Positions 11,721-61,113 of a stretch of DNA of 64,000 bases are shown piece after piece. Position 1 is the first letter of the stretch; each line of letters opens with the position of its first letter. The notes below the pieces were generated by a model. The model was not told where the DNA came from. It saw only the letters and a program-made list of their open reading frames with translations, and did no database searches. The position numbers and the translations under genes were made by a program. The stretch comes from Bryobacterales bacterium (lineage in GTDB: Bacteria > Acidobacteriota > Terriglobia > Bryobacterales > UBA6623), in the NCBI GenBank assembly GCA_965226245.1, contig CBDDCL010000015.1, positions 1,839,412-1,903,411 of the forward strand, given 5' to 3'.

Positions 11721-12658
11721 TGCATACCACCTGAATTATGCACTGCGGGTACACCTGAGGAGGGCTGTGCCGCGAGGGACCATTGGGCGACCCCCGAAAA
11801 CATGGGGTAATAAGGTAGGCTGGCAAAGATTTCAGCTTCGCCAGCCAACCCCAAGGAGGTCACCCAAATGGTTACCAAGCGAAAACAGCATAGCTCCAAA
11901 AACCCCGCCAAACAAGGCCGCGGCGCGACGGCTCCGCAGCCCAATAAAATCGGGGCTTCCACGCCCTATCACTTCCGCGGCAAGAATCTGACTCCCTACG
12001 GCGGCCTGCTGCCGGTCGCCACCCTGCTCGAAAAACTCGGCTTCCAAGAGCTGCTGGAACAAACCCTCAGCGTCAAACGAATCACCCGTGTGATGAGCCT
12101 CTACCAGTTTGTGCTGGCCCTCGTGCTGGCCCTCGTGCTGGGCCTCTATGTCGGCTTTGCACGGCTCAACCAACTCCGCTTCATCGCGCGCGACCCCATC
12201 CTGACCGGCATCTTGCAAGTGACGCGGCTGCCGCCGCAATCCACGCTGTGGCGCTTTCTGGCCTCGCTGCATCTCAACGTGGCGCGGCAGATCCTGTCGA
12301 TGCAGCGCCAACTGCGCGAACGAGCCTGGGCGGCGGCCAACGTGCGGTTGACCACGGTGACGCTGGACACCGACACCACCGTGCACACCCTCTACGGCCA
12401 GCAGATGGGCGGGCGCAAGAGCTACAACCCCAAGAACAAGGGCAAGCGCAGCTACCAGCCGATACTGACCTTCCTGGCCGAGACGCGCGAATACCTGATG
12501 GGCGGGTTGCACAATGGCGACCGGCCCACGGGCAAAGAGATCGCGGCGCACCTCGAAAGTGCTTTCCAGGCTTTGCCGGCCAGTGTGAAGCGGATCTTGG
12601 CGCGGGCCGATTCCGGCTTTTATTGCTGGGAAGCGGTGGCAGCCTACGAACAAGCGCA

Positions 12659-13685: not shown

Positions 13686-15040
13686 CAAGCGCATTGTCAG
13701 TTCGTCATCGTGGCGCGCAAGACTAGGCGACTGGTCGAGCAGTTGCAGCAAGCGGAATGGAAGCCCTCGCCCCACAGCGACGCTGCGGCGGAGTGCGAAT
13801 TCCTCTACCAGCCGCAAGGCTGGGGCAGGGCCTGCCGCTTTGTCGCGCTGCGTTATGAAAAGGAGCCGGAAACCGACGAGGTCGAGCAATATCAGTTGTT
13901 TGCAACCAGCGCTTACACCTACCGCGTGTTCGTCACCAACCTCACCGAGCCGATCGCGGCGGTGGCGTGGTTTTACAACCAGCGGGCTGGGGCGGAGAAC
14001 CTCATCAAAGAAGCCAACAACGACGCCGGGCTGGCGGCCCATCCTTCGCGCCGCTTTGACATGAACCGCAATCACTTTCAGTTGGTCATGCTGGCCTACA
14101 ACCTCAACTGCTGGCTGCTGCTGTTCCAGCGCGAAGCCGACGCCACCCCGGAGAAGCTGCGCCACACCACCCTGGCGACGGCGCGGCTGCGCTTTCTGTT
14201 CGTGGCGGCCAAGATCTGGCGGCATGCCGGCAGAACGGGCATCAGCTACAGCGATCAGTACCAGGAGCAGGGCCTGTTCGAGCGGCTGATGCGGCGGCTG
14301 CGGGCGATGGCGCCGCCGGGATCGAGCTGCGCGCCGGTGGTGGAGGGTGCGCTGCGTTGAGGGGCGCTGCGCATAGAATTTTATGCACGGGCCGCAAGCT
14401 ACTGGGAACATGCCGTTTGCGAGCCCGCTTTTGCCCGCCCGGAATTGGGAGGCGGCTCAAACCGGGAAGGAAACAGCAGAAAAGACGACTTGCTAAATCA
14501 CTGAGTTGACACGACTGCCGCTACCGCCACAACTCCATCGGCGATGGCTACGCCGAACCTGTGCATAATTCAGGTACCATAGTCCTGCTGGCGGTCGCGG
14601 AACTCTTCGTGCCAGTTTTGGACGACGCAACGGAAAATACTTTCACCTCGCCTGCGCTTCAAGATTCCAAGCGCTAGATGAGAACGCCGCCACGGAGCGG
14701 AGCTACTTTCGAGTTCTGCCCCTGATAAACTCGATTGATGACGAAACCGTACTCGGAACGCGGGATCCGGCAACTGCGGTGGTCACACTTACAGTTCTAG
14801 TACTAACGGATCATACCAAATAAGTACAAATTGTCTATGGACAAAACGCCTTAGTCGCGGCCATTATACCCTAGAACGCTCTTTTTGAGACTATGCCGCC
14901 CGTAGGGGCGGGCGTCAGCGAAGAGTCCGAGGGATTGGACCCGCGGCGCAGGAGCACGAAAAAAACGGGCAAGGAAGCAAAACTTCGGCGAAGCCGTGTG
15001 GCTGCGGGCGCGACGGTCTGGCTGGCTGGGAGATCGTGGT

Positions 15041-18596: not shown

Positions 18597-20396
18597 CCTG
18601 AATTATGCACAGGTTCGGCGTAGCCATCGCCGATGGAGTTGTGGCGGTAGCGGCAGTCGTGTCAACTCAGTGATTTAGCAAGTCGTCTTTTCCGCGGTTT
18701 CCCTCCCGGTTTGAGCCGCCTCCCAATCCGGGCGGGCAAAAGCGGGCTCGCAAACGGCATGTTCCCAGTAGCTTGCAGCAAGTGCATAAAATTTTATGCA
18801 TGGAGCACCTCTCAACGCAGCGCACCCTCCACCACCGGCGCGCAGCTCGATCCCGGCGGCGCCATCGCCCGCAGCCGCCGCATCAGCCGCTCGAACAGGC
18901 CCTGCTCCTGGTACTGATCGCTGTAGCTGATGCCCGTTCTGCCGGCGTGCCGCCAGATCTTGGCCGCCACGAACAGAAAGCGCAGCCGCGCCGTCGCCAG
19001 GGTGGTGTGCCGCAGCTTCTCCGGGGTGGCGTCGGCTTCACGCTGGAACAGCAGCAGCCAGCAGTTGAGGTTGTAGGCCAGCATGACCAACTGAAAGTGA
19101 TTGCGGTTGGTGTCAAAGCGGCGCGAAGGATGGGCCGCCAGCCCGGCATCGTTGTTGGCCTCCTTGATCAGGTTTTCCGCCCCGGCCCGCTGATTGTAAA
19201 ACCACACCACCGCCGCGATCGGCTCGGCCAGGTTGGTCACAAACACGCGGTAGGTGTAAGCGCTGGTTGCAAACAACTGATATTGCTCGACCTCCTCGGT
19301 TTCCGGCTCCTTTTCATAACGCAGCGCGACAAAGCGGCAAGCCCTGCCCCAGCCTTGCGGCTGGCAGAGGAATTCGCACTCCGCCGCAGCGTCGCTGTGG
19401 GGCGAGGGCTTCCATTCCGCTTGCTGCAACTGCTCGACCAGTCGCCTGGTCTTGCGCGCCACGATGACGAACTGACAATGCGCTTGTTCGTAGGCTGCCA
19501 CCGCTTCCCAGCAATAAAAGCCGGAATCGGCCCGCGCCAAGATCCGCTTCACACTGGCCGGCAAAGCCTGGAAAGCACTTTCGAGGTGCGCCGCGATCTC
19601 TTTGCCCGTGGGCCGGTCGCCATTGTGCAACCCGCCCATCAGGTATTCGCGCGTCTCGGCCAGGAAGGTCAGTATCGGCTGGTAGCTGCGCTTGCCCTTG
19701 TTCTTGGGGTTGTAGCTCTTGCGCCCGCCCATCTGCTGGCCGTAGAGGGTGTGCACGGTGGTGTCGGTGTCCAGCGTCACCGTGGTCAACCGCACGTTGG
19801 CCGCCGCCCAGGCTCGTTCGCGCAGTTGGCGCTGCATCGACAGGATCTGCCGCGCCACGTTGAGATGCAGCGAGGCCAGAAAGCGCCACAGCGTGGATTG
19901 CGGCGGCAGCCGCGTCACTTGCAAGATGCCGGTCAGGATGGGGTCGCGCGCGATGAAGCGGAGTTGGTTGAGCCGCGCAAAGCCGACATAGAGGCCCAGC
20001 ACGAGGGCCAGCACAAACTGGTAGAGGCTCATCACACGGGTGATTCGTTTGACGCTGAGGGTTTGTTCCAGCAGCTCTTGGAAGCCGAGTTTTTCGAGCA
20101 GGGTGGCGACCGGCAGCAGGCCGCCGTAGGGAGTCAGATTCTTGCCGCGGAAGTGATAGGGCGTGGAAGCCCCGATTTTATTGGGCTGCGGAGCCGTCGC
20201 GCCGCGGCCTTGTTTGGCGGGGTTTTTGGAGCTATGCTGTTTTCGCTTGGTAACCATTTGGGTGACCTCCTTGGGGTTGGCTGGCGAAGCTGAAATCTTT
20301 GCCAGCCTACCTTATTACCCCATGTTTTCGGGGGTCGCCCAATGGTCCCTCGCAGCTCAGCCCTCCTCAGGTGCACCCCGCAGTGCATAATTCAGG
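18597..20396 (-). mobile_element. ISa copy 3 (1800-bp sequence variant), intact
   Basis: Same terminal repeats. The 5-bp duplication TTCCA is at 18592-18596 and 20397-20401. It differs from the 1798-bp variant mainly in the transposase 3' third and both subterminal regions. Confidence 0.92.
18812..20257 (-). CDS. ISa transposase (variant allele, 481 aa)
   Basis: Full-length ORF with a few substitutions relative to the other copies (e.g. FLCQPQ, PETEEVEQ, NLAEPIAAVVW, RFDTNRN). Confidence 0.9.
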   Translation of the reverse strand: MVTKRKQHSSKNPAKQGRGATAPQPNKIGASTPYHFRGKNLTPYGGLLPVATLLEKLGFQELLEQTLSVKRITRVMSLYQFVLALVLGLYVGFARLNQLRFIARDPILTGILQVTRLPPQSTLWRFLASLHLNVARQILSMQRQLRERAWAAANVRLTTVTLDTDTTVHTLYGQQMGGRKSYNPKNKGKRSYQPILTFLAETREYLMGGLHNGDRPTGKEIAAHLESAFQALPASVKRILARADSGFYCWEAVAAYEQAHCQFVIVARKTRRLVEQLQQAEWKPSPHSDAAAECEFLCQPQGWGRACRFVALRYEKEPETEEVEQYQLFATSAYTYRVFVTNLAEPIAAVVWFYNQRAGAENLIKEANNDAGLAAHPSRRFDTNRNHFQLVMLAYNLNCWLLLFQREADATPEKLRHTTLATARLRFLFVAAKIWRHAGRTGISYSDQYQEQGLFERLMRRLRAMAPPGSSCAPVVEGALR

Positions 20397-23612: not shown

Positions 23613-25410
23613 CCTGAATTATGCACTGCGGGTACACCTGAGGAGGGCTGTGCCGCGAGGGACCATTGGGCGACCCCCGAAAACATGGGGTAATAAGGTA
23701 GGCTGGCAAAGATTTCAGCTTCGCCAGCCAACCCCAAGGAGGTCACCCAAATGGTTACCAAGCGAAAACAGCATAGCTCCAAAAACCCCGCCAAACAAGG
23801 CCGCGGCGCGACGGCTCCGCAGCCCAATAAAATCGGGGCTTCCACGCCCTATCACTTCCGCGGCAAGAATCTGACTCCCTACGGCGGCCTGCTGCCGGTC
23901 GCCACCCTGCTCGAAAAACTCGGCTTCCAAGAGCTGCTGGAACAAACCCTCAGCGTCAAACGAATCACCCGTGTGATGAGCCTCTACCAGTTTGTGCTGG
24001 CCCTCGTGCTGGGCCTCTATGTCGGCTTTGCGCGGCTCAACCAACTCCGCTTCATCGCGCGCGACCCCATCCTGACCGGCATCTTGCAAGTGACGCGGCT
24101 GCCGCCGCAATCCACGCTGTGGCGCTTTCTGGCCTCGCTGCATCTCAACGTGGCGCGGCAGATCCTGTCGATGCAGCGCCAACTGCGCGAACGAGCCTGG
24201 GCGGCGGCCAACGTGCGGTTGACCACGGTGACGCTGGACACCGACACCACCGTGCACACCCTCTACGGCCAGCAGATGGGCGGGCGCAAGAGCTACAACC
24301 CCAAGAACAAGGGCAAGCGCAGCTACCAGCCGATACTGACCTTCCTGGCCGAGACGCGCGAATACCTGATGGGCGGGTTGCACAATGGCGACCGGCCCAC
24401 GGGCAAAGAGATCGCGGCGCACCTCGAAAGTGCTTTCCAGGCTTTGCCGGCCAGTGTGAAGCGGATCTTGGCGCGGGCCGATTCCGGCTTTTATTGCTGG
24501 GAAGCGGTGGCAGCCTACGAACAAGCGCATTGTCAGTTCGTCATCGTGGCGCGCAAGACCAGGCGACTGGTCGAGCAGTTGCAGCAAGCGGAATGGAAGC
24601 CCTCGCCCCACAGCGACGCTGCGGCGGAGTGCGAATTCCTCTACCAGCCGCAAGGCTGGGGCAGGGCCTGCCGCTTTGTCGCGCTGCGTTATGAAAAGGA
24701 GCCGGAAACCGACGAAGTCGAGCAATATCAGTTGTTTGCAACCAGCGCTTACACCTACCGCGTGTTCGTCACCAACCTCACCGAGCCGATCGCGGCGGTG
24801 GCGTGGTTTTACAACCAGCGGGCTGGGGCGGAGAACCTCATCAAAGAAGCCAACAACGACGCCGGGCTGGCGGCCCATCCTTCGCGCCGCTTTGACATGA
24901 ACCGCAATCACTTTCAGTTGGTCATGCTGGCCTACAACCTCAACTGCTGGCTGCTGCTGTTCCAGCGCGAAGCCGACGCCACCCCGGAGAAGCTGCGCCA
25001 CACCACCCTGGCGACGGCGCGGCTGCGCTTTCTGTTCGTGGCGGCCAAGATCTGGCGGCATGCCGGCAGAACGGGCATCAGCTACAGCGATCAGTACCAG
25101 GAGCAGGGCCTGTTCGAGCGGCTGATGCGGCGGCTGCGGGCGATGGCGCCGCCGGGATCGAGCTGCGCGCCGGTGGTGGAGGGTGCGCTGCGTTGAGGGG
25201 CGCTGCGCATAGAATTTTATGCACGGGCCGCAAGCTACTGGGAACATGCCGTTTGCGAGCCCGCTTTTGCCCGCCCGGAATTGGGAGGCGGCTCAAACCG
25301 GGAAGGAAACAGCAGAAAAGACGACTTGCTAAATCACTGAGTTGACACGACTGCCGCTACCGCCACAACTCCATCGGCGATGGCTACGCCGAACCTGTGC
25401 ATAATTCAGG
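23613..25410 (+). mobile_element. ISa copy 4 (1798 bp), intact
   Basis: Terminal repeats as above. The 5-bp duplication TTGCA is at 23608-23612 and 25411-25415. Confidence 0.92.
23751..25196 (+). CDS. ISa transposase (481 aa)
   Basis: Differs from the 15341-16786 copy by a single residue (GLYVG here versus GFYVG there); the 34112-35557 protein as listed is identical. Confidence 0.9.
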   Translation: MVTKRKQHSSKNPAKQGRGATAPQPNKIGASTPYHFRGKNLTPYGGLLPVATLLEKLGFQELLEQTLSVKRITRVMSLYQFVLALVLGLYVGFARLNQLRFIARDPILTGILQVTRLPPQSTLWRFLASLHLNVARQILSMQRQLRERAWAAANVRLTTVTLDTDTTVHTLYGQQMGGRKSYNPKNKGKRSYQPILTFLAETREYLMGGLHNGDRPTGKEIAAHLESAFQALPASVKRILARADSGFYCWEAVAAYEQAHCQFVIVARKTRRLVEQLQQAEWKPSPHSDAAAECEFLYQPQGWGRACRFVALRYEKEPETDEVEQYQLFATSAYTYRVFVTNLTEPIAAVAWFYNQRAGAENLIKEANNDAGLAAHPSRRFDMNRNHFQLVMLAYNLNCWLLLFQREADATPEKLRHTTLATARLRFLFVAAKIWRHAGRTGISYSDQYQEQGLFERLMRRLRAMAPPGSSCAPVVEGALR

Positions 25411-27679
25411 TTGCAAGACGCAGATTCGCATACGAAACCGGCACTACTCAAGCAGGCAGCCGAGCGATTTCTGGCTGCATATGAAGAGTCCGATGACGCT
25501 GATCTCCTAGCGCAGACCGCTCAAGCCTACTACCTCGCTGGAGACTGGCCGGAAGCGAGCAAGACTTACGAGCGACTGATGGCGCTGCCTGGCTTAGCCC
25601 AAAATACTCTGGGACTGGCTTTGGAGAACTTGGGGTTCATTGCGCTCCGTGAAGGCCGATCAGACCAGGCGGTTGATTTTCTGAGCCAGGCGATCAAACA
25701 GGGAGGTGCCGGTTCCCGCTTGAGGCAGAACTTAGGGCTTGCTCTCTATTCTGAGCGACGTTGGCGCGAAGCCCTGGAGCAGTTTCATGCCGCCTCCGAG
25801 GAGAAGAAGGACTCCCAGGTGCTGATTTACGTGGCGCGGTGTTACAAGGAATTGAATAAGCCTGGCCTAGCCATTAAGTTCTTCAGAGAGGCACTTGCCA
25901 TTGGGAAAAGTATGCAGCCTTCCGAGCGACGCGAAGTCCTCAGCGAGCTGGGCTACCTCTACGCCGGTCAGCCAGACTACGCCGAGGCGGCGTCGGCTTG
26001 GCGTCAGGTCCTTGTCCTCAAAGAAGAACCGGCAGTCCGCATTCGGCTGGCTCGGGTGGAGCGGCTGGCTTCGGAGATCGAGAACGCGCAGACAACACTG
26101 GAGACGATCGAGGTTGGGTCCCTGCCTTCGGAGCTTATTGCTGAATACTTCGAGGAACGCGCGGAGCTAGCCTACGCCGGAGGTCAAACCGCCCAAGCGG
26201 TGGAGCACTTGGAATCATCGGCCTCCCTAGCTCCCGAACCTGGACGCTTGCTCCGGCTGGGACTTCTATACGACGAAATCGACGAGATTGACAGGTCGAT
26301 CGAGGTCCTCGAGAACGCTCGACAACTCGACCCTCAAAGCACTCGTATCGCTGAAGCTCTAGGTTATGCCTACGCCCGGCGGGATGAACTGGACCGGGCT
26401 ACCGAAGTCTTCGAAGAGGTCGCCGATCGGGATCCGCACAACTCCAATGTGACTCGGGATCTGGCCTACCTCCTCATGAAACATGGCAGAAACGAGCAGG
26501 CCCGAACTTGGTTCCGCCACTCAATTGATTATCAGCCGCAGCCCCCTGAAGCAACTCGGGATCTGCATCCCGACGAAATCGAGGAGAACTTCCGCGTCAG
26601 GAAAGAGATCTCAAAACTGGGCAATCGCGTCGACCTGATTCCCTATTTTTCGTACTCTTCGGCTGATCGCAGTCAGCCGGCGGCTTTCGCCGCAGTGGGC
26701 GGGACGGCGATCCCGTCCCAAGGCGGTGTCGAACTGGCTTACACCCCGCGGCGCTTTGGTCTGCGCAACGACCGCGTCTTCCAAGTCTTCGGACGCGTGC
26801 TAGGGAACCTCCAACCGGCTTCTCTCAGTATGGACAACGAGAGTTACCAGGGAGGAATCGGCGCCCGCTACAAGCCGCTTCCGACACAGAATTTGTACTT
26901 CTCCGGAGAGCGGCTGTTTAAGATCGGCTCGAATTCCTTCAACACTTGGTTCCTGCGCAGTCATTATTCTTGGGCGAGCGAGTACGGGGTGAAGCCGCTG
27001 CGAAAAGCCTGGAACCACACCATGTTCTACGGCGACATCGGCTACTTGACCTCTCCTGATCTGTTCACGATGTACGGAGAAGCACGACAGGGCGTCACTT
27101 TTCGTTTCGGCGATGGCTTCCTCGTGACACCTCACGCGCTGGTGGCTGGCCGGAACTACAATCCGAACAGAAATGTCAGCTCGTATCTTGAAGGCGGTGC
27201 TGGTGTCGCATTCAAAGTGTTGTACAACGACAGTCTCTACGACGTACATCGTTCCGGATTCGAGGTGGCGGTACAATACCGCTGGGGAATCATATCCGCG
27301 CTGGCGCCGCTCTTGAATCAGCCGAGGTTCGGCGGGCTCGTGATCAGTACAATGCTTCAGTTTTGAGGGAAACTTTTGGTGTCGACGATTTACTCTCGCA
27401 GTAGAATTCTACTAGTGGCAGCTTTGGCCCTTGTCGCCGCCGGAAGGTCGCGTGAACTTCCGCCATCCGTTCTAATTCAAGGAACCTTTTTGCAGTTGTG
27501 GGACGATCATGCCCAATGGAGCGATTCCCAGTGGGACAAGCTGTTTGGATACTTCGAAGAGTTGCAAATGAGGACCCTGGTGGTCCAGTGGACGGTCTAC
27601 GACTCGACGGCGTTCTATGAATCGGATCAGTTCGAGGCAGTCGGAACGCTGCCAGTTGAGGGAATCCTGAAAAGAGCCG

Positions 27680-28706
27680 ATGGGGTATTTAGTTGACTCC
27701 AGTAGCCACTACATCTTGGGGGTGGGGGTGCCGGCCCTGGTGGCCTCGACCATTGTCTTATAGGGAGCAGGGTCGGCGGCGACCGCCTGCTGGAGGAGGC
27801 GATAGAAAAGTTTGCCGCGCGACCGTGAGGTCCGCCGGTTGAAGCGGAACGTGAACTCGTCCAGGTAGTAGTCCAAATACTCGTGACTGACAGCCCCCTG
27901 GTGGGTCCCCAACAGCCAGCGCTTTAGCAGAGAGGCGACACGATGGACTCTCGGCAGCAGCTTACTCGCCGATTGCCGCTTCCCGCGCAGCACGGTGACT
28001 TCATGGCGGTATCCTTTGTTCTCCAATCCCGCATAGCCTTCCCAGCCGTCGGTGTGCACGAGGCTGCCAGGTTGGATAGCTTCTTCGACAAAGGCTTCCA
28101 AGCTCGCCGCTGAGGCATCCGCGATCCGACGGAGCCGGATGCGACCCATACCGCGCCCATCCTCCTCGGCAGCAACCGCAACTAACGCTTTGCCAACCAT
28201 TTCGCGACCTCGGACGCCCTCTTCGACTCCGCCCACATACGTTTCGTCCACCTCCACCCGGCCGACCAGCCGATTGCGACCGGGGCGCACCATGGCGCGG
28301 CGGAACTTGTGCAGCCAGGTCCAGGCGGTTACATAGCTACCCAAACCCAAGACCCGCTGCAACTCCAGCGCGCTGGCCCCGCCTTTTTGCGTTGTCACCC
28401 ACCAAGCCGCCCGGAACCACAACGTCAAGGGCTTGCGGGTGTCCTGGAAAATCGTGCCCGCCGTCACCGAGGCCTGGTAACCGCAGTCGGCGCAGAGCAG
28501 CAGATTGCGTTTGCTGGCCCATGAGGACTGGATCCCACAGCGCGGGCACACGAACCCCTCCGGCCAGCGCAGCTTCAGCAGGTACTCCCGGCACGCCTCC
28601 TCGGTCGAGAATCGAGCTTCCAACTCGACGAGGTTTCGGGGGTAGTCCTCCTTCATGCCCCCAACCACAACATATTGTGGCTACTGGAGTCAACTAAATA
28701 CCCCAT
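27680..28706 (-). mobile_element. ISb copy 2 (1027 bp); identical encoded transposase, so apparently identical to copy 1
   Basis: Same ends as copy 1. AAGAGCCG is at 27672-27679 and 28708-28715, with one extra T (28707) between the IS end and the right copy. Confidence 0.9.
27709..28656 (-). CDS. IS1595-family (ISXO2-like) transposase
   Basis: The protein is identical to the 12709-13656 copy. Confidence 0.9.
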   Translation of the reverse strand: MKEDYPRNLVELEARFSTEEACREYLLKLRWPEGFVCPRCGIQSSWASKRNLLLCADCGYQASVTAGTIFQDTRKPLTLWFRAAWWVTTQKGGASALELQRVLGLGSYVTAWTWLHKFRRAMVRPGRNRLVGRVEVDETYVGGVEEGVRGREMVGKALVAVAAEEDGRGMGRIRLRRIADASAASLEAFVEEAIQPGSLVHTDGWEGYAGLENKGYRHEVTVLRGKRQSASKLLPRVHRVASLLKRWLLGTHQGAVSHEYLDYYLDEFTFRFNRRTSRSRGKLFYRLLQQAVAADPAPYKTMVEATRAGTPTPKM

Positions 28707-29649
28707 TAAGAGCCGAACAGGCCGGGATAAAAGTGTGGCTGGGTCTTGCTAACGACAGTTCTTACTGGAATCGGATCGGCGCTGACCGCTCGTTTCTGGA
28801 AACTTACCTGCGTAACCTTCGCAATCGATCCGCACTCGTCGCGGCCGAGCTCCTCCCAATCGCAGCCCGCTATGACTCTTTCGCAGGCTGGTACATCCCT
28901 ACCGAGATCGATGACGTTAACTGGCGAACGCGTGAAGCCGCAGGGTCGCTGAACCGCTTTGTTTCCGGTCTAAGTAGGGATTTGAGGCGCATTACACCCG
29001 ATGCCGGGATTGCGATCTCCGGGTTTTCGAACGCTTATCTGGACCCGAGAGGTTTCGAGCGATTCTGGACTAAACTGATGACGGAGGCCAAGCTGGACAT
29101 CGTGCTATTCCAAGACGGCGTCGGCGCGGGGAAACTCCTTCCGCGGGAGCTTGGTTTCTACATTCAAGCGATCCAGCGTTCCTCAAAGCAGTCGGGCTGC
29201 CGGCTGGTCGTTGTTCTGGAACTTTTTGAACAGATCCCAGGCGATTCCGGATTCGATGCCCGACCGGCCCCTTTCGAGAGGATCATTGATCAACTCAACC
29301 AAGTCAGACAGACCGGCGTCACTGAGATATTCGCCTTCAGCGTTCCAGAATACTTGACACCGCTGGGTGGTCCGGAAGCTGAAAAGAACTATCGGGATTA
29401 CCGCCGCCTACTGTCTCCACGGGGCCCCAGGGAGTAGTATCTCCCTCCGATACTATTTTGCGGGTTTCGCGCTGCGTTTCCGGCCAGAACACCCAAGCTG
29501 GGAGGCGGCTTCGAGCCTGCTGTTTCGGGTCACGAACCGGGTATCGTTGACCTTCAATTATTTACGAAGAAATTACAGTCTGCTGACCCGCGACGGTTGG
29601 TATCAAGGGGCTTATGTCGGACTTCAGATCGAACCATAAAAGGGGTACC

Positions 29650-32313: not shown

Positions 32314-32656
32314 GACGGCCCTCGAGGCCGCGGTCGCCGTGAACCTCGTCAACCCGCGCAGGCGTAAGCATCCGCCACCGCCCACGCGCCAAGCAACAGT
32401 AGAGGAACGAGTAGAGCAACAGTAGAGGAAACGCAAGGAGAGAGGAGCCAAGGAATGATTCAAGGGCCAAACGATGTGGCGCAAGTGGCGCGCGCCTCCT
32501 GGCGGGCAGCGTCGGCCTCCGGGCCGGCGTCCGTCGCGGACACCCCAAGCACATCGTCCGGCCCGCGCAAGACACGAAAACGTCACGAATCCGCACGGAC
32601 AACGGCGTCTTTTACGCGGAATCTGCAATCGGGCCGCCGACCCCTCCCAATCCAAA

Positions 32657-32804
32657 CCACTGAAAACAAAAACACTATTCGTTTTCGTCGAAGAGAAGGC
32701 GCCAAAATCAGGGCAGTTTTACCCGAGACCCTGAAAAAATCTGTAAAAAACTGCAATTTTGTAAAGAAAATTTATACCCCAATCGGCAACCTCTATCGTT
32801 TCAG
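32657..32804. repeat. AT-rich conserved module, copy B (degenerate: lacks the TGCCATTYTC decamers and has a 10-nt deletion in the promoter spacer)
   Basis: CCACTGAAAACAAAAACACTATTCG...TTTGTAAAGAAAATTTATACCCCAATCGGCAACCTCTATCGTTTC. A 47-nt block upstream (32485-32531) is identical to 5224-5270. Confidence 0.75.
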
Positions 32805-33973: not shown

Positions 33974-35771
33974 CCTGAATTATGCACTGCGGGTACACCT
34001 GAGGAGGGCTGTGCCGCGAGGGACCATTGGGCGACCCCCGAAAACATGGGGTAATAAGGTAGGCTGGCAAAGATTTCAGCTTCGCCAGCCAACCCCAAGG
34101 AGGTCACCCAAATGGTTACCAAGCGAAAACAGCATAGCTCCAAAAACCCCGCCAAACAAGGCCGCGGCGCGACGGCTCCGCAGCCCAATAAAATCGGGGC
34201 TTCCACGCCCTATCACTTCCGCGGCAAGAATCTGACTCCCTACGGCGGCCTGCTGCCGGTCGCCACCCTGCTCGAAAAACTCGGCTTCCAAGAGCTGCTG
34301 GAACAAACCCTCAGCGTCAAACGAATCACCCGTGTGATGAGCCTCTACCAGTTTGTGCTGGCCCTCGTGCTGGGCCTCTATGTCGGCTTTGCACGGCTCA
34401 ACCAACTCCGCTTCATCGCGCGCGACCCCATCCTGACCGGCATCTTGCAAGTGACGCGGCTGCCGCCGCAATCCACGCTGTGGCGCTTTCTGGCCTCGCT
34501 GCATCTCAACGTGGCGCGGCAGATCCTGTCGATGCAGCGCCAACTGCGCGAACGAGCCTGGGCGGCGGCCAACGTGCGGTTGACCACGGTGACGCTGGAC
34601 ACCGACACCACCGTGCACACCCTCTACGGCCAGCAGATGGGCGGGCGCAAGAGCTACAACCCCAAGAACAAGGGCAAGCGCAGCTACCAGCCGATACTGA
34701 CCTTCCTGGCCGAGACGCGCGAATACCTGATGGGCGGGTTGCACAATGGCGACCGGCCCACGGGCAAAGAGATCGCGGCGCACCTCGAAAGTGCTTTCCA
34801 GGCTTTGCCGGCCAGTGTGAAGCGGATCTTGGCGCGGGCCGATTCCGGCTTTTATTGCTGGGAAGCGGTGGCAGCCTACGAACAAGCGCATTGTCAGTTC
34901 GTCATCGTGGCGCGCAAGACTAGGCGACTGGTCGAGCAGTTGCAGCAAGCGGAATGGAAGCCCTCGCCCCACAGCGACGCTGCGGCGGAGTGCGAATTCC
35001 TCTACCAGCCGCAAGGCTGGGGCAGGGCCTGCCGCTTTGTCGCGCTGCGTTATGAAAAGGAGCCGGAAACCGACGAGGTCGAGCAATATCAGTTGTTTGC
35101 AACCAGCGCTTACACCTACCGCGTGTTCGTCACCAACCTCACCGAGCCGATCGCGGCGGTGGCGTGGTTTTACAACCAGCGGGCTGGGGCGGAGAACCTC
35201 ATCAAAGAAGCCAACAACGACGCCGGGCTGGCGGCCCATCCTTCGCGCCGCTTTGACATGAACCGCAATCACTTTCAGTTGGTCATGCTGGCCTACAACC
35301 TCAACTGCTGGCTGCTGCTGTTCCAGCGCGAAGCCGACGCCACCCCGGAGAAGCTGCGCCACACCACCCTGGCGACGGCGCGGCTGCGCTTTCTGTTCGT
35401 GGCGGCCAAGATCTGGCGGCATGCCGGCAGAACGGGCATCAGCTACAGCGATCAGTACCAGGAGCAGGGCCTGTTCGAGCGGCTGATGCGGCGGCTGCGG
35501 GCGATGGCGCCGCCGGGATCGAGCTGCGCGCCGGTGGTGGAGGGTGCGCTGCGTTGAGGGGCGCTGCGCATAGAATTTTATGCACGGGCCGCAAGCTACT
35601 GGGAACATGCCGTTTGCGAGCCCGCTTTTGCCCGCCCGGAATTGGGAGGCGGCTCAAACCGGGAAGGAAACAGCAGAAAAGACGACTTGCTAAATCACTG
35701 AGTTGACACGACTGCCGCTACCGCCACAACTCCATCGGCGATGGCTACGCCGAACCTGTGCATAATTCAGG
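33974..35771 (+). mobile_element. ISa copy 5 (1798 bp), intact
   Basis: The 5-bp duplication TAACA is at 33969-33973 and 35772-35776. Inserted exactly at the stop codon of the MBL gene, so it is not gene-disrupting. Confidence 0.92.
34112..35557 (+). CDS. ISa transposase (481 aa)
   Basis: Full-length ORF. Confidence 0.9.
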   Translation: MVTKRKQHSSKNPAKQGRGATAPQPNKIGASTPYHFRGKNLTPYGGLLPVATLLEKLGFQELLEQTLSVKRITRVMSLYQFVLALVLGLYVGFARLNQLRFIARDPILTGILQVTRLPPQSTLWRFLASLHLNVARQILSMQRQLRERAWAAANVRLTTVTLDTDTTVHTLYGQQMGGRKSYNPKNKGKRSYQPILTFLAETREYLMGGLHNGDRPTGKEIAAHLESAFQALPASVKRILARADSGFYCWEAVAAYEQAHCQFVIVARKTRRLVEQLQQAEWKPSPHSDAAAECEFLYQPQGWGRACRFVALRYEKEPETDEVEQYQLFATSAYTYRVFVTNLTEPIAAVAWFYNQRAGAENLIKEANNDAGLAAHPSRRFDMNRNHFQLVMLAYNLNCWLLLFQREADATPEKLRHTTLATARLRFLFVAAKIWRHAGRTGISYSDQYQEQGLFERLMRRLRAMAPPGSSCAPVVEGALR

Positions 35772-41908: not shown

Positions 41909-42003
41909 AGCAGTCCAAGTCTAGGGTAGCGAAGATAGATGCCGGGAACAAGCCTTCCCGCGAACTATCCTATCCTAGCACCAATGCTGTTCACTTACTG
42001 TAG

Positions 42004-42099
42004 AGCCTTTTGAGCCGCGAAGCGGCGCCGGATCGTAGCCCAAGGGTGGAGCGAAGCGGAACCCTGGGTCCGAAACCCCTCGAGGGAGAAGCCCCGCAA
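42004..42099. repeat. R-family repeat copy R3
   Basis: Near-identical to R1 and R2 up to GCCCCGCAAG. It shares the upstream ccaatgctgttcac motif with R2. Confidence 0.8.
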
Positions 42100-42224
42100 G
42101 CCGGAGCCCCGACCGTGAGGGAGGGGTTAGCCGCTTCGACGCGCGGAATCCAGCGGCGCTCACTCGTCCGCGATAGATACTAGCCCGGCGATTCTGAGGA
42201 TCTTGTTCGCAGAAATGGCGGCAC

Positions 42225-42489: not shown

Positions 42490-42553
42490 GACGGCCGCCA
42501 AGCCGCTACGAAACGCAGCCGCACTCGCAAAGTGAATCTGTGCATCATTCAGG
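42490..42553. repeat. Diverged solo ISa-like right end (relic)
   Basis: gaatctgtgcatcattcagg versus the ISa end gaacctgtgcataattcagg (2 mismatches). There is weaker similarity about 40 nt further in. It is followed by TTGCA. No matching left end was found. Confidence 0.45.
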
Positions 42554-42586: not shown

Positions 42587-43309
42587 TTAAATACTCTTCA
42601 GCAGTTGGCTGGCCTCGGTGTAACGCGGGAATCTTCGTTCCTCGGCCTTGAATTGTTTGGTATGTACGCAACGCCGCAGCGAGCGATACTCCGCGGGATA
42701 TTTTAGGTGCAGCATCTCGTGGTAGAGAATGTAGTCAACCAAGAAGTGGGGAATTGCAGCGGAATCGAACAGCTTGCTGATCACGATTAAGTTGTGGGCC
42801 GGGTCATAGTACCCCAGCGATCGGCGTGAGGCCCGGGGGCTCCAGCTAAGAACCGGCCGTGCGAGCTGTCCGTCAAAAAATCGCCGATTCAGACCGTCGA
42901 AGAGTTCGTCCAAATCGTAAAAACTACCTTTGGGGGATCGTTGCGGCTTCCTCCCGCGAGCCTGCCGGACTAACAAGGCCTTGCACCTCACGTCGGCTCG
43001 GTTCACGTAATCCCGGTAGCTGCGGTCATGCTTTGCAGGCACCGGCTTGCGGTACAGCTTGCAGAGCAGGATGTAACTCAGCGCCTCAAGGACCGATGGC
43101 GGCCCTTTTTCCAATAGGTCCGACAGTTTGACGGTGATGTGGGCGCGTTCAGCGTCTATTGAGATCTTGCTGTCGAGGTTGGCGTAGGGGTGGAAGCCGA
43201 TTGAGAACCGGGGCAGGCGGGTCCGCGGTTTGAGTTCGCGGAAGACCCTCTCATATACGCTATCGAGGGCCTCGAACAGCAACATCTGAGTCATGATGTT
43301 CTGTTTCAA
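42587..43309 (-). CDS. SprT-like / DUF45-like zinc metallopeptidase domain protein
   Basis: 240-aa ORF with the HEMLH zinc motif in ...DYILYHEMLHLKYPAEYRSLRRCVHTKQFKAEERRFP... Confidence 0.7.
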   Translation of the reverse strand: MKQNIMTQMLLFEALDSVYERVFRELKPRTRLPRFSIGFHPYANLDSKISIDAERAHITVKLSDLLEKGPPSVLEALSYILLCKLYRKPVPAKHDRSYRDYVNRADVRCKALLVRQARGRKPQRSPKGSFYDLDELFDGLNRRFFDGQLARPVLSWSPRASRRSLGYYDPAHNLIVISKLFDSAAIPHFLVDYILYHEMLHLKYPAEYRSLRRCVHTKQFKAEERRFPRYTEASQLLKSI

Positions 43310-43321
43310 TGTAGCATTGTA

Positions 43322-45066
43322 CCTGAATTATGCACAGGTTCGGCGTAGCCATCGCCGATGGAGTTGTGGCGGTAGCGGCAGTCGTGTCAACTCAGTGATT
43401 TAGCAAGTCGTCTTTTCCGCGGTTTCCCTCCCGGTTTGAGCCGCCTCCCAATCCGGGCGGGCAAAAGCGGGCTCGCAAACGGCATGTTCCCAGTAGCTTG
43501 CAGCAAGTGCATAAAATTTTATGCATGGAGCACCTCTCAACGCAGCGCACCCTCCACCACCGGCGCGCAGCTCGATCCCGGCGGCGCCATCGCCCGCAGC
43601 CGCCGCATCAGCCGCTCGAACAGGCCCTGCTCCTGGTACTGATCGCTGTAGCTGATGCCCGTTCTGCCGGCGTGCCGCCAGATCTTGGCCGCCACGAACA
43701 GAAAGCGCAGCCGCGCCGTCGCCAGGGTGGTGTGCCGCAGCTTCTCCGGGGTGGCGTCGGCTTCACGCTGGAACAGCAGCAGCCAGCAGTTGAGGTTGTA
43801 GGCCAGCATGACCAACTGAAAGTGATTGCGGTTGGTGTCAAAGCGGCGCGAAGGATGGGCCGCCAGCCCGGCATCGTTGTTGGCCTCCTTGATCAGGTTT
43901 TCCGCCCCGGCCCGCTGATCGACCTCCTCGGTTAAGCGCTGGTTGCAAACAACTGATATTGCTCCTCGGTTTCCGGCTCCTTTTCATAACGCAGCGCGAC
44001 AAAGCGGCAGGCCCTGCCCCAGCCTTGCGGCTGGCAGAGGAATTCGCACTCCGCCGCAGCGTCGCTGTGGGGCGAGGGCTTCCATTCCGCTTGCTGCAAC
44101 TGCTCGACCAGTCGCCTGGTCTTGCGCGCCACGATGACGAACTGACAATGCGCTTGTTCGTAGGCTGCCACCGCTTCCCAGCAATAAAAGCCGGAATCGG
44201 CCCGCGCCAAGATCCGCTTCACACTGGCCGGCAAAGCCTGGAAAGCACTTTCGAGGTGCGCCGCGATCTCTTTGCCCGTGGGCCGGTCGCCATTGTGCAA
44301 CCCGCCCATCAGGTATTCGCGCGTCTCGGCCAGGAAGGTCAGTATCGGCTGGTAGCTGCGCTTGCCCTTGTTCTTGGGGTTGTAGCTCTTGCGCCCGCCC
44401 ATCTGCTGGCCGTAGAGGGTGTGCACGGTGGTGTCGGTGTCCAGCGTCACCGTGGTCAACCGCACGTTGGCCGCCGCCCAGGCTCGTTCGCGCAGTTGGC
44501 GCTGCATCGACAGGATCTGCCGCGCCACGTTGAGATGCAGCGAGGCCAGAAAGCGCCACAGCGTGGATTGCGGCGGCAGCCGCGTCACTTGCAAGATGCC
44601 GGTCAGGATGGGGTCGCGCGCGATGAAGCGGAGTTGGTTGAGCCGCGCAAAGCCGACATAGAGGCCCAGCACGAGGGCCAGCACAAACTGGTAGAGGCTC
44701 ATCACACGGGTGATTCGTTTGACGCTGAGGGTTTGTTCCAGCAGCTCTTGGAAGCCGAGTTTTTCGAGCAGGGTGGCGACCGGCAGCAGGCCGCCGTAGG
44801 GAGTCAGATTCTTGCCGCGGAAGTGATAGGGCGTGGAAGCCCCGATTTTATTGGGCTGCGGAGCCGTCGCGCCGCGGCCTTGTTTGGCGGGGTTTTTGGA
44901 GCTATGCTGTTTTCGCTTGGTAACCATTTGGGTGACCTCCTTGGGGTTGGCTGGCGAAGCTGAAATCTTTGCCAGCCTACCTTATTACCCCATGTTTTCG
45001 GGGGTCCCCCAATGGTCCCTCGCAGCTCAGCCCTCCTCAGGTGCACCCCGCAGTGCATAATTCAGG
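43322..45066 (-). mobile_element. ISa copy 6 (1800-bp-variant lineage), degenerate: internal rearrangement and non-matching flanks
   Basis: Both terminal repeats are present. Flanking pentamers are TTGTA (43317-43321) and TTGAT (45067-71), not a clean duplication. Relative to copy 3, 62 bp are replaced by a 13-bp copy of cgacctcctcggt and 6 bp are lost (43915-43970). Length 1745. Confidence 0.85.
43537..44927 (-). pseudogene. ISa transposase broken by the internal rearrangement (N-part 43932-44927, C-part 43537-43815)
   Basis: The N-part ends ...ETEEQYQLFATSA*. The C-part resumes at MVMLAYNLNCW... Confidence 0.85.
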
Positions 45067-45329
45067 TTGATATCGAGGAACTCGTCAAGCGAAAGGTCGA
45101 CAGCGGGGCATACCGCTCGGCCAGCGACGTCGTCCGTGATGCCTTGGAGCTTCTCGAAAAGCGGGACGTAAGAAAGCTAGATGCGCTCCGACAGGACATT
45201 CAGCATGCCGTCGATCAAGTCGAACGCGGTGAGTTCACGGAATACGAGACAGACCGGTTGAACGAACTGTTCGAGAAGGTTGCGACGGAGGGAAAGAAGA
45301 GGCTTAACTCAACGCCGAAACCTGGTTAA
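45012..45329 (+). CDS. parD: ParD-family antitoxin lacking its native N-terminus (about 14 aa, the RHH strand); the ORF is re-initiated from an ATG inside the ISa end
   Basis: ATG 45012 lies within ISa. 18 IS-encoded residues (MVPRSSALLRCTPQCIIQ) are fused in frame to ...DIEELVKRKVDSGAYRSASDVVRDALELLEKRD..., the ParD core. The stop overlaps the parE start (TAATG). Confidence 0.6.
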   Translation: MVPRSSALLRCTPQCIIQVDIEELVKRKVDSGAYRSASDVVRDALELLEKRDVRKLDALRQDIQHAVDQVERGEFTEYETDRLNELFEKVATEGKKRLNSTPKPG

Positions 45330-45619
45330 TGGCCAAACTCAGCGTATCCAAGGACGCCGAATCCGACCTCATCGAAATCTGGTATTACATCGCTCGAGAC
45401 AGCCTCTTCAGTGCTGGCTGTCTCAATAAGCTGCTTTACGAAAAGTTCCACACGCTGGCTGCCAATCCGGGTATCGGCAGATCACGCCCGCAACTCGGTC
45501 CGCAGGTTCGCAGCTTTCCGATTGGCCGCTACGTGATCTACCATCGCCCTATTGGATCTCTATGCGTCATTCTGCGGGTTATCCACGGTGCTCGGGACGT
45601 CGCGGACCTTGCGCTTTGA
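45329..45619 (+). CDS. parE: ParE/RelE-family toxin
   Basis: 96-aa ORF: ...DLIEIWYYIARDS...ANPGIGRSRPQLGPQVRSFPIGRYVIYHRP...ILRVIHGARD, typical ParE. Confidence 0.8.
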   Translation: MAKLSVSKDAESDLIEIWYYIARDSLFSAGCLNKLLYEKFHTLAANPGIGRSRPQLGPQVRSFPIGRYVIYHRPIGSLCVILRVIHGARDVADLAL

Positions 45620-45878
45620 ATAGCGGCGGCATTGGTGTGAACTTTGAGCTCACCCGCGATGGATCGCTCACCCAGTTCGCCCTGAAATCGTTCTCAACCA
45701 CTTCTACCGGCCGGGCTTCTCCGCCCGGTAGCGGAACAGGATCGTGTTGGCCAACTCCAGATCCTCGGTCCAGATGAACTGCACGCCCTCGAAATCATAA
45801 TCGTGGTAGACGCGGTTGGGGCGAACTTCTTCCTTTGTAAACTCGCCGTAGCGCGGGCGATTCGGTCCGTCTCGCGGC

Positions 45879-47528
45879 CTACGGCGTGAACCGTTGGGCG
45901 ATGGGGAAGCGGCGGCCGACACCGAAGGCTTTGGAAGTCACGCGCAAGCCCGGCGCGGCTTGCTTGCGTTTGTATTCATTGCGGTCTACCTTTTGTGTAA
46001 TATTGCGGACCAGCTCTTCCGGCAACCTTAAATCCCGGGCGATTGCGGCGGGGTCTTGATACTCCTCGACGTAGGCTTTCAGGATCGGGTCAAGCACTTC
46101 GTATTCGGGCAGCGAGTCGGTGTCTTTTTGGCCGGGCCGCAGCTCAGCCGATGGCGGTTTCGTGAAAACGCTTTCAGGGATGGCATCGGGATGCCGCCGG
46201 TTGCCCACCCGGCCGAGCTGGTAGACGAGCGTCTTGGGAACGTCACTTATCACCGCGAGCCCCCCGCACATGTCGCCGTAAAGAGTGCAATAGCCGACGG
46301 CCAGCTCGCTCTTATTCCCGGTCGTCAGCACCAATGATCCGAACTTGTTGGAGAGCGCCATGAGCGCGTCGCCGCGCAGGCGGGCTTGCAGGTTTTCCTC
46401 GGTAACGTCGCGGTTCATTCCTTCAAAAATGGGAGCCAGAGTTCGATCGAACGCTGCGAATATTTCGTTGATGCTCACGATCTCGAACTGGATTCCCAAT
46501 TTCCCGGCCAAGTGCCGGGCGTCCGTGACGCTGCCCTCGGAGGAAAAAGGTCCGGGCATGGCGACGCCGATCATATTCTCAGCGCCAATGGCGTCGGCGC
46601 CGATCAAGGCAGTCACCGAGGAGTCGATTCCGCCGCTGAGCCCGACGATGACCTTGCCGAAGCCGCATTTGCGGACATAATCTCGCGTGCCAACCACGAG
46701 GCCTTCGTAGACGACCTCGCATTCGTCTTGCATTTGCTCGTGCCGGTCGCCCTGTCCTGTCGCGGTGTCGTAGAAGATCAGGTCGGGCTCAAAGGTCTTG
46801 GCTTGCGCGCAAACGCAGCCGTCGGCAGCGATGACGAAACTCGATCCGTCGAAGACGAGCTGGTCGTTGCCGCCAACCTGGTTCACCATCGCGATCGGAA
46901 CTTGAAGGCGGCGTGCGATCGCCCGAAGCATCTCGAGGCGCACCTTGCGCTTGCCCATGTGATAAGGCGAGGAGGCGATGTTGATCAGGATGTCCATGCC
47001 TTGGGAGGCCAGTTCCTCCACCGGGTCGCGCTGGTAGAGTTCGCGGTCCCAGAACTGTTTATCGTTCCAAACGTCCTCGCAGATGGTGATCGCCAGGCGC
47101 GAGCCGCGGGCTTCGTGGACGGACTGGTTTTTCGCCGGCTCAAAGTAGCGCCACTCGTCGAAGACGTCGTAGGTCGGCAGCAGCATCTTTCGCTGCCGGA
47201 AGGTGACGTTTCCTTGGGACAAATAAGCGGCGCAGTTAGCAGCTCTCTGCGGTCCTTTGCGGTCGGCGTGCCCCGCGTAGCCACAAATGACGTCGATGCC
47301 GAGTGTCGACGTCTCGGCCGCCAGCCGCCGCAATTCGGACTCGCTTCGCTCGCGGTAGGCGCGGACCTCGACCAGGTCTTGTGGAGGGTAGCCGCCGAGC
47401 GAGAGTTCCGGGAAGGCGATCAGCGAGGCGCCGGCTTGGGCGGCGCGCCGGGCGGCGCTGGCCATGAGGTCCACATTGCCCGAGAAATCGCCTACGGTGG
47501 GATTGATCTGACCGAGGGCGAGCTTCAT
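45879..47528 (-). CDS. nadE: Glutamine-dependent NAD+ synthetase
   Basis: 549-aa ORF with an N-terminal CN-hydrolase domain (AFPELSLGGYPPQD...ICEDVW) and a C-terminal synthetase domain (VGLSGGIDSSV). Confidence 0.9.
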   Translation of the reverse strand: MKLALGQINPTVGDFSGNVDLMASAARRAAQAGASLIAFPELSLGGYPPQDLVEVRAYRERSESELRRLAAETSTLGIDVICGYAGHADRKGPQRAANCAAYLSQGNVTFRQRKMLLPTYDVFDEWRYFEPAKNQSVHEARGSRLAITICEDVWNDKQFWDRELYQRDPVEELASQGMDILINIASSPYHMGKRKVRLEMLRAIARRLQVPIAMVNQVGGNDQLVFDGSSFVIAADGCVCAQAKTFEPDLIFYDTATGQGDRHEQMQDECEVVYEGLVVGTRDYVRKCGFGKVIVGLSGGIDSSVTALIGADAIGAENMIGVAMPGPFSSEGSVTDARHLAGKLGIQFEIVSINEIFAAFDRTLAPIFEGMNRDVTEENLQARLRGDALMALSNKFGSLVLTTGNKSELAVGYCTLYGDMCGGLAVISDVPKTLVYQLGRVGNRRHPDAIPESVFTKPPSAELRPGQKDTDSLPEYEVLDPILKAYVEEYQDPAAIARDLRLPEELVRNITQKVDRNEYKRKQAAPGLRVTSKAFGVGRRFPIAQRFTP

Positions 47529-60446: not shown

Positions 60447-60737
60447 ACCGGCCCTAACTGCTACAATGAGAACGGTGGAAACAAGCTAAGGTGGCGGCAA
60501 GCGATGTGGCGACAAGCGATGTGGCGCACGTCTCCAGACGTGCCGTGTCGCCATTCCTGGCGACATGTCTTAGTGGCATGGTCTTACTGGGATAGTCTTG
60601 CGTGGCAGTGGCCGTCCACCCGAATGTGCCGCCAATCCGCCCGCCTTGGCGAGCGACAAGAATACCTCAAATCCGCAAGAAAACCTGTCGCTTTGCCAGG
60701 GATCCTGCCACGGTCCCGCCGTCGGCTGTAATCCGAG

Positions 60738-60892
60738 TCACTGAAAACAAAAACATTATCGGTTGACACCATGACGAGGCGTCGAAAATAGCCCAGATCC
60801 TGCCATTTTGTGCCATTCTCTGCCATTTCCGCACATTTTGTAAAGAAACTTTATAAAAACTTACACCTCACGCTGCAACCTCTTTGTTTCCA
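60738..60892. repeat. AT-rich conserved module, copy C
   Basis: TCACTGAAAACAAAAACATTATCGGTTGACACC...TGCCATTTTG TGCCATTCTC TGCCATTTCC (60801-60830)...GAAACTTTATAAAAAC...CAACCTCTTTGTTTC. On the minus strand: TTGCAG (60878-60873), a 17-nt spacer, TATAAA (60855-60850). Confidence 0.8.
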
Positions 60893-61113
60893 TCACTTCG
60901 CCAGGCCGTTGCCACTGACATCCTGGCCTGCCGCTTTGACGCCAACGCCGTGGCGGGCAGAGATGCCTGTCCAATTCATCTTGAGAATGTAGAAACTCTA
61001 GGCCTTTGCCGCGTTAACGCCGCGGTTGTTGAATCCTTGCCAAGCACTGCAGAAAACTTCAGGTGGCCGGACAGAGGCGTGGACGGAAGTCCACCGCTTG
61101 GGGCAGACGCCTC

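Follow-up and report, generated by a model that had tools for sequence, protein, structure and literature searches.

Within a 64,000-nucleotide stretch of a Bryobacterales genome (assembly GCA_965226245.1, contig CBDDCL010000015.1; hereafter the window), a degenerate copy of ISa, an insertion sequence (IS) of the IS1380 family, separates a SprT-like metallopeptidase gene (sprT) from the 5'-truncated antitoxin gene of a parD-parE toxin-antitoxin (TA) pair. Comparison with related assemblies makes the following structural history highly probable. On an ancestral chromosome with the order ccmHFE, miaA, parD-parE, nadE, an ISa of subtype B would have inserted into parD right after codon 8 (target TGATA), with its transposase-proximal end facing what remained of the gene (parD'); a reciprocal exchange with a second ISa copy, 27 nt upstream of sprT (target TTGTA), would have swapped the outer flanks of the two elements, giving sprT-TTGTA-ISa-T-TGATA-parD'-parE-nadE in the window and miaA-promoter-parD(8 codons)-TGATA-ISa-TTGTA-cheW elsewhere; and a lesion with a net loss of 55 bp would later, in the window's strain alone, have inactivated the transposase and left the IS ends intact. 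The ancestral order, the insertion, the exchange and the later lesion are the part of this history that can be read from the compared sequences. Joined to the further proposal that parD' and parE persist as an essentially silent remnant, the statement as a whole is one that we favour with distinctly less assurance.

Empty sites and recombinant junctions

The degenerate ISa copy ends in a perfect 14-bp inverted repeat, CCTGAATTATGCAC, at 43322-43335 and 45053-45066, and its flanking pentamers are unequal (left TTGTA, right TTGAT), as the first-pass annotation of the window had reported and as we re-derived. The accompanying remark that neither pentamer ends in the usual CA did not hold, since that ending applies to the plus strand only and came from mixing IS orientations; oriented relative to the IS, the duplications follow TNNNA, which TTGTA and the parD-side TGATA both fit. 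In five related contigs (L003-L007) the native order is ccmH-ccmF-ccmE (minus strand), miaA, parD (93 aa) and parE, followed in L003 and L004 by nadE, methyltransferase and Fe-S genes, as in the window. The window becomes homologous to L003 at base 45068 and stays so over 3.9 kb (94%). Because neither miaA nor ccm-like sequence occurs within the 64-kb window, the left flank of the IS is foreign to the parDE locus.

The missing half of the locus lies in two sister assemblies. A miaA allele (P0132) that shares a 90% cluster with the miaA of L003 is carried by L020 and by L019, the latter a contig of 1.35 Mb whose sample also yielded L008. On both, miaA and the parD promoter lead to ATGAACGTCTCCCTTACCCCTGATA, which abuts the end CCTGAATTATGCAC of an intact ISa, and the opposite end of that element, AATTCAGG, abuts TTGTACCGGTTGCAAGG, followed by cheW, cheB and cheA. 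The parD-side junction reads CCCCTGATA/CCTGAATT, and the right flank towards cheW begins TTGTACCGG (junction form AATTCAGG/TTGTACCGGTTGC); CCCCTGATACCTGAATTATGCAC and AATTCAGGTTGTACCGGTTGCAAGG would be diagnostic of the reciprocal junction in the source genome. The left side of L019 aligns to L003 up to position 6024 (94.15%) and the right side of the window aligns from 6021 (94.24%), with an overlap of TGAT(A); as the two alignments abut at 6021-6024, the L019 left side and the window right side are complementary, equally diverged halves of one locus. The sprT side closes in the same manner. L021, whose SprT is 97% identical and which has no ISa at the site, reads GCATTGTACCGG upstream of sprT (fuller stretch CAATATAGCATTGTACCGGTTGCAAGGTTCGC) with a single TTGTA, and this empty site equals the window left flank joined to the L019 right flank; since it holds one TTGTA, the TTGTA halves of the window and of L019 are a pair. 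As far as these sequences go, both empty sites and both recombinant junctions are recovered. The missing parD 5' end and the partner duplications, which the first-pass annotation had suggested looking for elsewhere, are thus both accounted for in L019 and L020, and the reciprocal junction together with the unequal flanks bears out its proposal of an IS-mediated rearrangement instead of a simple insertion.

For both the exact window ParE and the P0132 miaA, the longest contig on record is the same 7,118,846-bp NCBI contig, so the window's genome appears to keep miaA. A search of the GTDB representative genomes for the partner junction written as TGAT plus the IS end gave no match, because the true junction is TGATA plus the IS end.

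Three long-read metagenome assemblies, L008, L009 and L010 (contigs of 0.97, 7.19 and 0.14 Mb), encode the exact window NadE; they are 99.9% identical to the window and share its IS-parD' junction and a 105-aa open reading frame (ORF) that spans it. The sprT/TTGTA left flank is common to L008 and L010; L009 instead reads ...GGTGGAA, on the pirin side. On the 7.19-Mb contig the sprT flank lies ~115 kb away in inverted orientation and abuts an ISa copy that has TGGAA on its far side (L016). Judged by these junctions, the 7.19-Mb genome differs from the window by an inversion between the parD-site IS and a copy originally flanked by TGGAA on both sides, and because of this ~115-kb inversion (in ctg125699) ISa-mediated inversions are clearly still under way in the population.

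At the same parD site, L008, L009 and L010 hold an intact 1800-bp IS, and the lesion is therefore private to the window's strain. Alignment of the IS copies reproduced the internal rearrangement described in the first-pass annotation, in which 62 bp are replaced by a 13-bp copy of nearby sequence and a further 6 bp are lost; outside this lesion, the element is 99.8% identical to the copy at 18597-20396. The net loss (1745 versus 1800 bp) splits the 481-aa transposase into ORFs of 331 and 92 aa, the former falling below the NF033539 cut-off because it is truncated.

The truncated antitoxin and its toxin

An ATG at 45012 inside the IS opens the 105-aa ORF, which fuses 18 IS-encoded residues to ParD (junction peptide CTPQCIIQVDIEELVK) and overlaps the parE start; on re-derivation, this element of the first-pass annotation stood as described. 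The ORF is called by gene callers in L008-L010, and an identical protein is recorded, unnamed, on 4 contigs. Its ParD part matches PF03693 over positions 16-69 of 81 only (35.9 bits, cut-off 21) and TIGR02606 over positions 10-62 of 70 only (46.4 bits, cut-off 46.2). The helical core and the C-terminal toxin-binding part are thus represented on both models, and the N-terminal ribbon-helix-helix (RHH) strand of dimeric DNA binding is absent, with PF03693 1-15 and TIGR02606 1-9 unmatched and the residues MNVSLTP gone. ParD homologues identified by BLASTP are 78-94% identical over the 86-aa ParD part (best-alignment coverage 100% for P0001-P0007, 88% for P0008 and 71% for P0009); relatives in the PDB are 7YCS, 7B22 and 3KXE. 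Intact homologues are 93 aa long and begin MNVSLTPDLEELV, all of them starting with M(N/T)VSLTPDLEELVKRKV, and none starts at the DIEELV position, a start that had been named as speaking against truncation. The window reads ...QV-DIEELVKRKV in the parD frame, so that the loss amounts to 7 residues (MNVSLTP), or to 8 codons if the duplicated D codon is counted; the ~14 codons of the first-pass annotation were an overestimate, as the homologues start MNVSLTP-D. Its other statements on this gene, a truncated 5' end and no native promoter nearby, agree with the missing MNVSLTP and with the window's lack of miaA and ccm genes; in L019 the native promoter region now lies beside miaA, upstream of another ISa copy. 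Truncation and fusion were made by the IS insertion itself, and the flank swap changed only the far side of the element. A G-to-C difference at ISa position 1741, 5 nt upstream of the fusion ATG, was considered as a private adaptive change and set aside as a subtype variant, because the sprT-DUF3179 copy of ctg125699 also has it.

The toxin gene was rightly described as intact: PF05016 covers ParE over its full length, as expected of a ParE/RelE-fold domain, and chain A of PDB 6X0A matches it (E = 2.8e-14). Of the features of a type II TA operon, the antitoxin-first order and the overlap of the fusion-ORF stop with the parE ATG (TAATG at 45329) are kept, and an autoregulated promoter and operator of its own is gone. 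An exact look-up of the window ParE returned only a 948-bp contig, ending inside parD. ParE carries Cys31 (position 45419) where the three sister assemblies and several relatives have Arg; residue 31 lies in the N-terminal alpha-hairpin region of the toxin. As one of 7 differences in 12.4 kb relative to L010, with ~0.16 expected in parE, the substitution is not significant. Synonymous divergence (dS) from the L003 lineage is 0.33 for parD' and 0.47 for parE (45069-45619), compared with 0.057 for the adjacent nadE (45879-47528), a contrast suggesting that a different allele of the TA cassette was exchanged into otherwise conserved synteny. The ratios of nonsynonymous to synonymous divergence (dN/dS) relative to L003 are both below 1 (0.24 for parD', 0.42 for parE); given the contrast in dS, they reflect the old divergent TA allele and not selection after the insertion.

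We infer that parD'-parE has been left without promoter and operator. No sigma-70-like promoter was found in 44700-45700, nor any consensus promoter in the 139 bp that separate the transposase ATG from the parD-side IS end, in a scan for an E. coli-type consensus that may not fit Acidobacteriota. Transcription of the two genes is probably weak or absent, and this would explain why an intact toxin beside a damaged antitoxin is tolerated: a first hit on the antitoxin can be borne if the same insertion silenced the toxin as well, by parting parE from its promoter. Of the three frames that read outwards at the parD-side end in subtype B, two are open over the last 77 nt, so that chance alone would be expected to give an in-frame fusion in one to two of three insertions, and the ATG that the IS end supplies in frame is most likely a coincidence. 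A recent, promoter-less and essentially silent remnant is the reading of parD'-parE that we consider rather probable. Weighing against it are that it is something we infer, that the E. coli-type consensus behind the promoter scan may be unsuited to Acidobacteriota, that a GGGGG run 7 nt upstream of the 45012 ATG, the sole feature with any likeness to a ribosome-binding site, might act as a weak one, and that parD' and parE contain neither frameshifts nor stops. The last point is uninformative on selection, because the assemblies that share the junction differ by ~0.1% and the event is too recent.

Doubtful, by comparison, is a reading in which the IS end gives both promoter and start codon, and a constitutive, non-autoregulating ParD fusion neutralises ParE, so that a rewired TA pair still works. 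According to two studies, the ordered N-terminal domain of ParD binds DNA and its disordered C-terminal part neutralises ParE (PMC8251345, PMC10776004); by this division, as given in PMC8251345, the ParE-neutralising part is retained in the window, and the fusion protein, if made, should bind ParE and lack the N-terminal RHH strand for operator binding. The in-frame ATG behind its G-rich stretch, the full-length parE, the preserved translational coupling at TAATG, the presence of the junction in four assemblies and the dN/dS values below 1 all accord with such a pair. Against it stand the absence of a consensus promoter from the 139 bp up to the IS end, the location of the documented outward promoters of the IS1380 family at the opposite end of the element, and the frequency with which chance alone would give an in-frame fusion; moreover, the dN/dS signal mostly predates the insertion, persistence at ~0.1% divergence says nothing about selection, and the AlphaFold2 model of the fusion is of low confidence (pLDDT 57.6, with the IS-encoded residues 1-18 below 50) and too poor for use. 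That the IS end has been co-opted to drive and start a ParD variant that lost operator binding and kept ParE neutralisation is, in our estimate, improbable; if true, an autoregulated TA module would have passed to constitutive, IS-dependent expression, and neutralisation would be separated from autoregulation in vivo, a reading that nothing at present requires.

TA biology gains a natural case in which the antitoxin and not the toxin was hit first: in the window lineage the antitoxin was, unusually, damaged first, and relatives at this locus, in the usual order of decay, lost parE first. Among the latter, L013, L014 and L018 lost parE and kept parD, with an altered ParD C-terminus (...NTNLYRPGFSTR, or a 90-aa form), and L015 lost both genes and has a miaA extended to 417 aa. 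The corresponding miaA relatives (P0013, P0014, P0015) belong to other lineages and are informative on synteny and TA decay, not on the partner junction.

Route of the exchange

At the level of sequence, the event is a reciprocal exchange, most simply an inversion, and not a deletion or a misassembly. Of the first-pass alternative "deletion or inversion", the inversion-type exchange is upheld by the reciprocal junction and the L021 empty site, and the deletion fails because miaA and the parD 5' end survive. The inversion could have arisen through homologous recombination of two inverted ISa copies or through intramolecular transposition in trans. Two insertions followed by homologous recombination between the inverted copies is the route that we tentatively prefer, because the second inversion (ctg125699) clearly involved pre-existing copies.

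Three observations sit uneasily with this account. First, the reciprocal junction was read in sister assemblies and not in the window's own genome. Second, the parD-side duplication is irregular, TTGATA with an extra T in the window versus TGATA in L019; relatives at the parD insertion site read CTGAT followed by C or G, and the extra T would stem from a duplication of 6 bp in which C became T, or from the insertion of a single nucleotide. Third, the copy at the window locus is subtype B at all 40 diagnostic sites and the L019 copy is subtype A at all 40, the sites spanning IS positions 97-1780. A crossover in the long identical core would give chimeras, and a one-step replicative event would give identical copies; as the reciprocal copies are non-chimeric, the crossover must have fallen inside the first 96 bp, or gene conversion must have followed. 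The pure A and pure B copies could hint at a flank exchange at or very near the IS end, and not at an ordinary internal crossover.

A single event is unlikely, namely that the ISa upstream of sprT transposed replicatively in trans into parD, inverting the intervening DNA, duplicating the IS and splitting both target duplications. It needs fewer steps, and the junctions of the window, L019 and L021 match those of intramolecular transposition in trans by IS26 and Tn4401, which gives every copy an old flank and a new one and places each 5-mer once at every copy (PMC4471558). The two copies should then be identical, yet they differ at 40 of 40 diagnostic sites, so that gene conversion would have to be added, and the second inversion in ctg125699 joins copies with their own matched TGGAA flanks, fitting recombination between pre-existing copies. 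To our knowledge, replicative transposition is not established for the IS1380 family, which counts further against a single event.

Far less probable is an adjacent IS-mediated deletion that took the parD 5' end and promoter along with all DNA as far as sprT: unequal flanks alone and the lack of miaA and ccm genes in the 64-kb window are compatible with it, but the parD 5' end and miaA survive beside an ISa copy whose other flank exactly continues the sprT upstream region, and the miaA allele and the exact window ParE each list the 7.12-Mb contig as their longest. An assembly artefact, whether a misjoin that the repeats induced at the IS or an error of the consensus behind the internal lesion, is scarcely credible despite six IS copies within 64 kb and a lesion confined to this assembly, since two other assemblies have identical sprT-IS-parD' joins and three have the same IS-parD' join (L008, L009 and L010, which excludes misassembly and leaves no intact parD adjacent in other assemblies, the finding that the first-pass annotation had named as contrary to its claim), the reciprocal junction fits base for base, and a templated 62-to-13-bp replacement plus a 6-bp loss would be untypical of consensus error.

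ISa, neighbouring features and likeness to known systems

The 14-bp end pattern CCTGAATTATGCAC has 13 matches in the window (12 exact and one with 1 mismatch) against 0.26 expected, and the 12 exact inverted-repeat ends bound six ISa copies (Table 1). Five of the six have perfect 5-bp target duplications, the exception being the copy at parD. Intact copies measure 1798-1800 bp and have a single ORF between perfect 14-bp inverted repeats. Elements of the IS1380 family are described in ISfinder as ~1.5-2 kb long, with one ORF and terminal inverted repeats whose first bases are CC. On NF033539, the NCBIfam IS1380 equivalog (cut-off 180), the intact 481-aa transposase reaches 251.3 bits, which makes the family assignment secure, and target duplications of the IS1380 type (4-5 bp) are seen in the 5-bp repeats of five copies and in the TTGTA of the empty sprT site. 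Among the GTDB representative genomes, an ISa-end 22-mer matched in two metagenome-assembled genomes only (Bryobacterales; Ca. Acidiferrales), which places the source genome outside the representatives. The taxon is deduced from these two matches and from homologues that their sources name Bryobacterales or Bryobacteraceae.

Table 1. Coordinates of the ISa copies, the TA genes and the sprT flank in the window.
Feature	Position	Strand	Remarks
SprT-like metallopeptidase gene, 235-aa form	42587-43294	-	PF10263; native upstream region displaced by IS
TTGTA, half of 5-bp target duplication of the sprT-upstream ISa insertion	43317-43321		Other half at right end of L019 copy
Degenerate ISa copy, IS1380 family, subtype B, 1745 bp	43322-45066	-	Transposase reads leftwards to sprT
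Transposase C-terminal fragment, 92 aa	43537-43815	-	PF13701 positions 363-433/435; out of frame with N-terminal part
13-bp CGACCTCCTCGGT	43920-43932		Substitutes for 62 bp of IS; copy of sequence ~40 bp downstream
6-bp loss (CTCGAC)	between 43961 and 43962		Within downstream template of the 13-mer; transposase frame shifted
Transposase N-terminal fragment, 331 aa	43932-44927	-	PF13701 positions 12-302/435; NF033539 161.6 bits
Fusion ORF, 105 aa	45012-45329	+	18 IS-encoded codons, junction codon, ParD residues 8-93
TGATA, parD-side half of target duplication	45068-45072		One base (T, 45067) from IS end
parD 3' part, codon 8 to stop	45069-45329	+	RHH-domain helices and ParE-neutralising C-terminal part
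parE toxin gene, full length, 96 aa	45329-45619	+	PF05016 3-88/89, 59.1 bits; R31C versus sister assemblies
ISa copy	11730-14574		5-bp duplication TACCA; IS1595-family element nested inside
ISa copy	15127-16924		5-bp duplication TTACA
ISa copy	18597-20396		5-bp duplication TTCCA; subtype B, closest to 43322-45066 copy
ISa copy	23613-25410		5-bp duplication TTGCA
ISa copy	33974-35771		5-bp duplication TAACA

On the left flank, the IS end lies 27 nt upstream of the sprT ATG and 12 nt from an alternative TTG, so the element is upstream of the gene and not within its 5' end, as had been supposed. The 235-aa product has an exact record in the sister assemblies and its homologues are also 235 aa long; the 240-aa form that starts at the TTG is not on record. 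In ISEcp1 and ISPme1 the outward promoter sits at the element's 3' end, opposite to the end that faces parD here. The ISa transposase reads towards sprT, and the corresponding end thus faces sprT (43294-43335), which makes sprT likelier than parD to be IS-driven; the scan with the E. coli-type consensus, which may not fit Acidobacteriota, found no sigma-70-like promoter at this end. In L008 (reverse-complemented, ~6800-7140, corresponding to window 42905-43072) a ~160-168-bp tandem duplication inside the sprT-like gene shortens the called product to 152 aa. In L016 (reverse-complemented, 10736-14109) the sprT-side ISa has at its position 20 an insertion of another IS, which encodes a 410-aa rve-type transposase and which the window lacks. 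Just downstream of the sprT stop, a solitary 20-mer at 42534-42553 agrees with the ISa terminal repeat in 18 of its 20 bases and is followed by TTGCA, resembling a target duplication; it has no adjoining IS-like sequence and may be a remnant of an old copy or a chance match.

Other repeats were also seen. The 1029-bp IS1595-family element occurs twice, at 12658-13686 (inside the ISa copy at 11730-14574) and at 27679-28707, and its ORF of 319 aa has Zn-ribbon and ISXO2-like DDE domains. A dispersed, GC-rich repeat of ~100 nt with internal palindromes is present at 2918-3017, 11618-11717 and 42001-42100 and in L003 at 10072-10125 (copies 89-98% identical); the copy at 11618-11717 adjoins the ISa at 11730. 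This repeat has no Rfam match and could be an element resembling repetitive extragenic palindromes (REP) or miniature inverted-repeat transposable elements (MITE), or a preferred IS target. A segment family with 47-87 nt shared lies at 5224-5825, 32485-32682 and 60521-60895, spaced 27-28 kb apart, and includes the motif CACTGAAAACAAAAACA(C/T)TAT. Rfam and tRNA scans of the window found nothing.

Taken at sequence level, the case is an ordinary IS1380-family insertion plus an IS-mediated inversion in an IS-rich acidobacterial chromosome, well resolved, and as it stands it opens no new question. Its value is that of a cleanly reconstructed example of a multi-copy IS reshaping an acidobacterial (Bryobacterales-like) chromosome, in which near-identical assemblies show the two empty sites, the two recombinant junctions and, nested, a second inversion.

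Like IS1380, ISEcp1 and ISPme1, ISa has a transposase that passes the equivalog cut-off, a length of ~1.8 kb, one ORF, ends starting with CC and 5-bp duplications. ISEcp1 and ISPme1 are noted for driving transcription outwards from a strong promoter and for one-ended mobilisation at the 3' end, whereas the gene fused here lies at the 5' (transposase-proximal) end, reads divergently and has no promoter detectable with an E. coli-type consensus. As in inversions between inverted IS copies and in intramolecular transposition in trans by IS26 and Tn4401 (PMC4471558), each copy carries one flank of each of two duplications and the split gene lies at distant sites; the window case differs in having two sequence subtypes without a visible crossover and one duplication with an extra base. 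With chromosomal parDE systems (Caulobacter ParD1-ParE1, 3KXE; Vibrio ParD2-ParE2, 7R5A; 6X0A; 7YCS) the pair shares a full-length ParE, the ParD helices and C-terminal tail, the gene order and the overlapping stop and start, but the N-terminal RHH strand MNVSLTP, the promoter and the operator are gone and 19 unrelated residues stand in place of the strand. Because strand and operator are missing, ParD autoregulation in the form given in PMC10776004 and PMC8251345 cannot work here. Finally, as in IS-generated fusion genes (PMC9330008), an IS end gives a truncated neighbour its start codon and possibly expression signals; the documented cases of IS activation are selected resistance genes with mapped promoters, whereas the fusion in the window is a predicted ORF.

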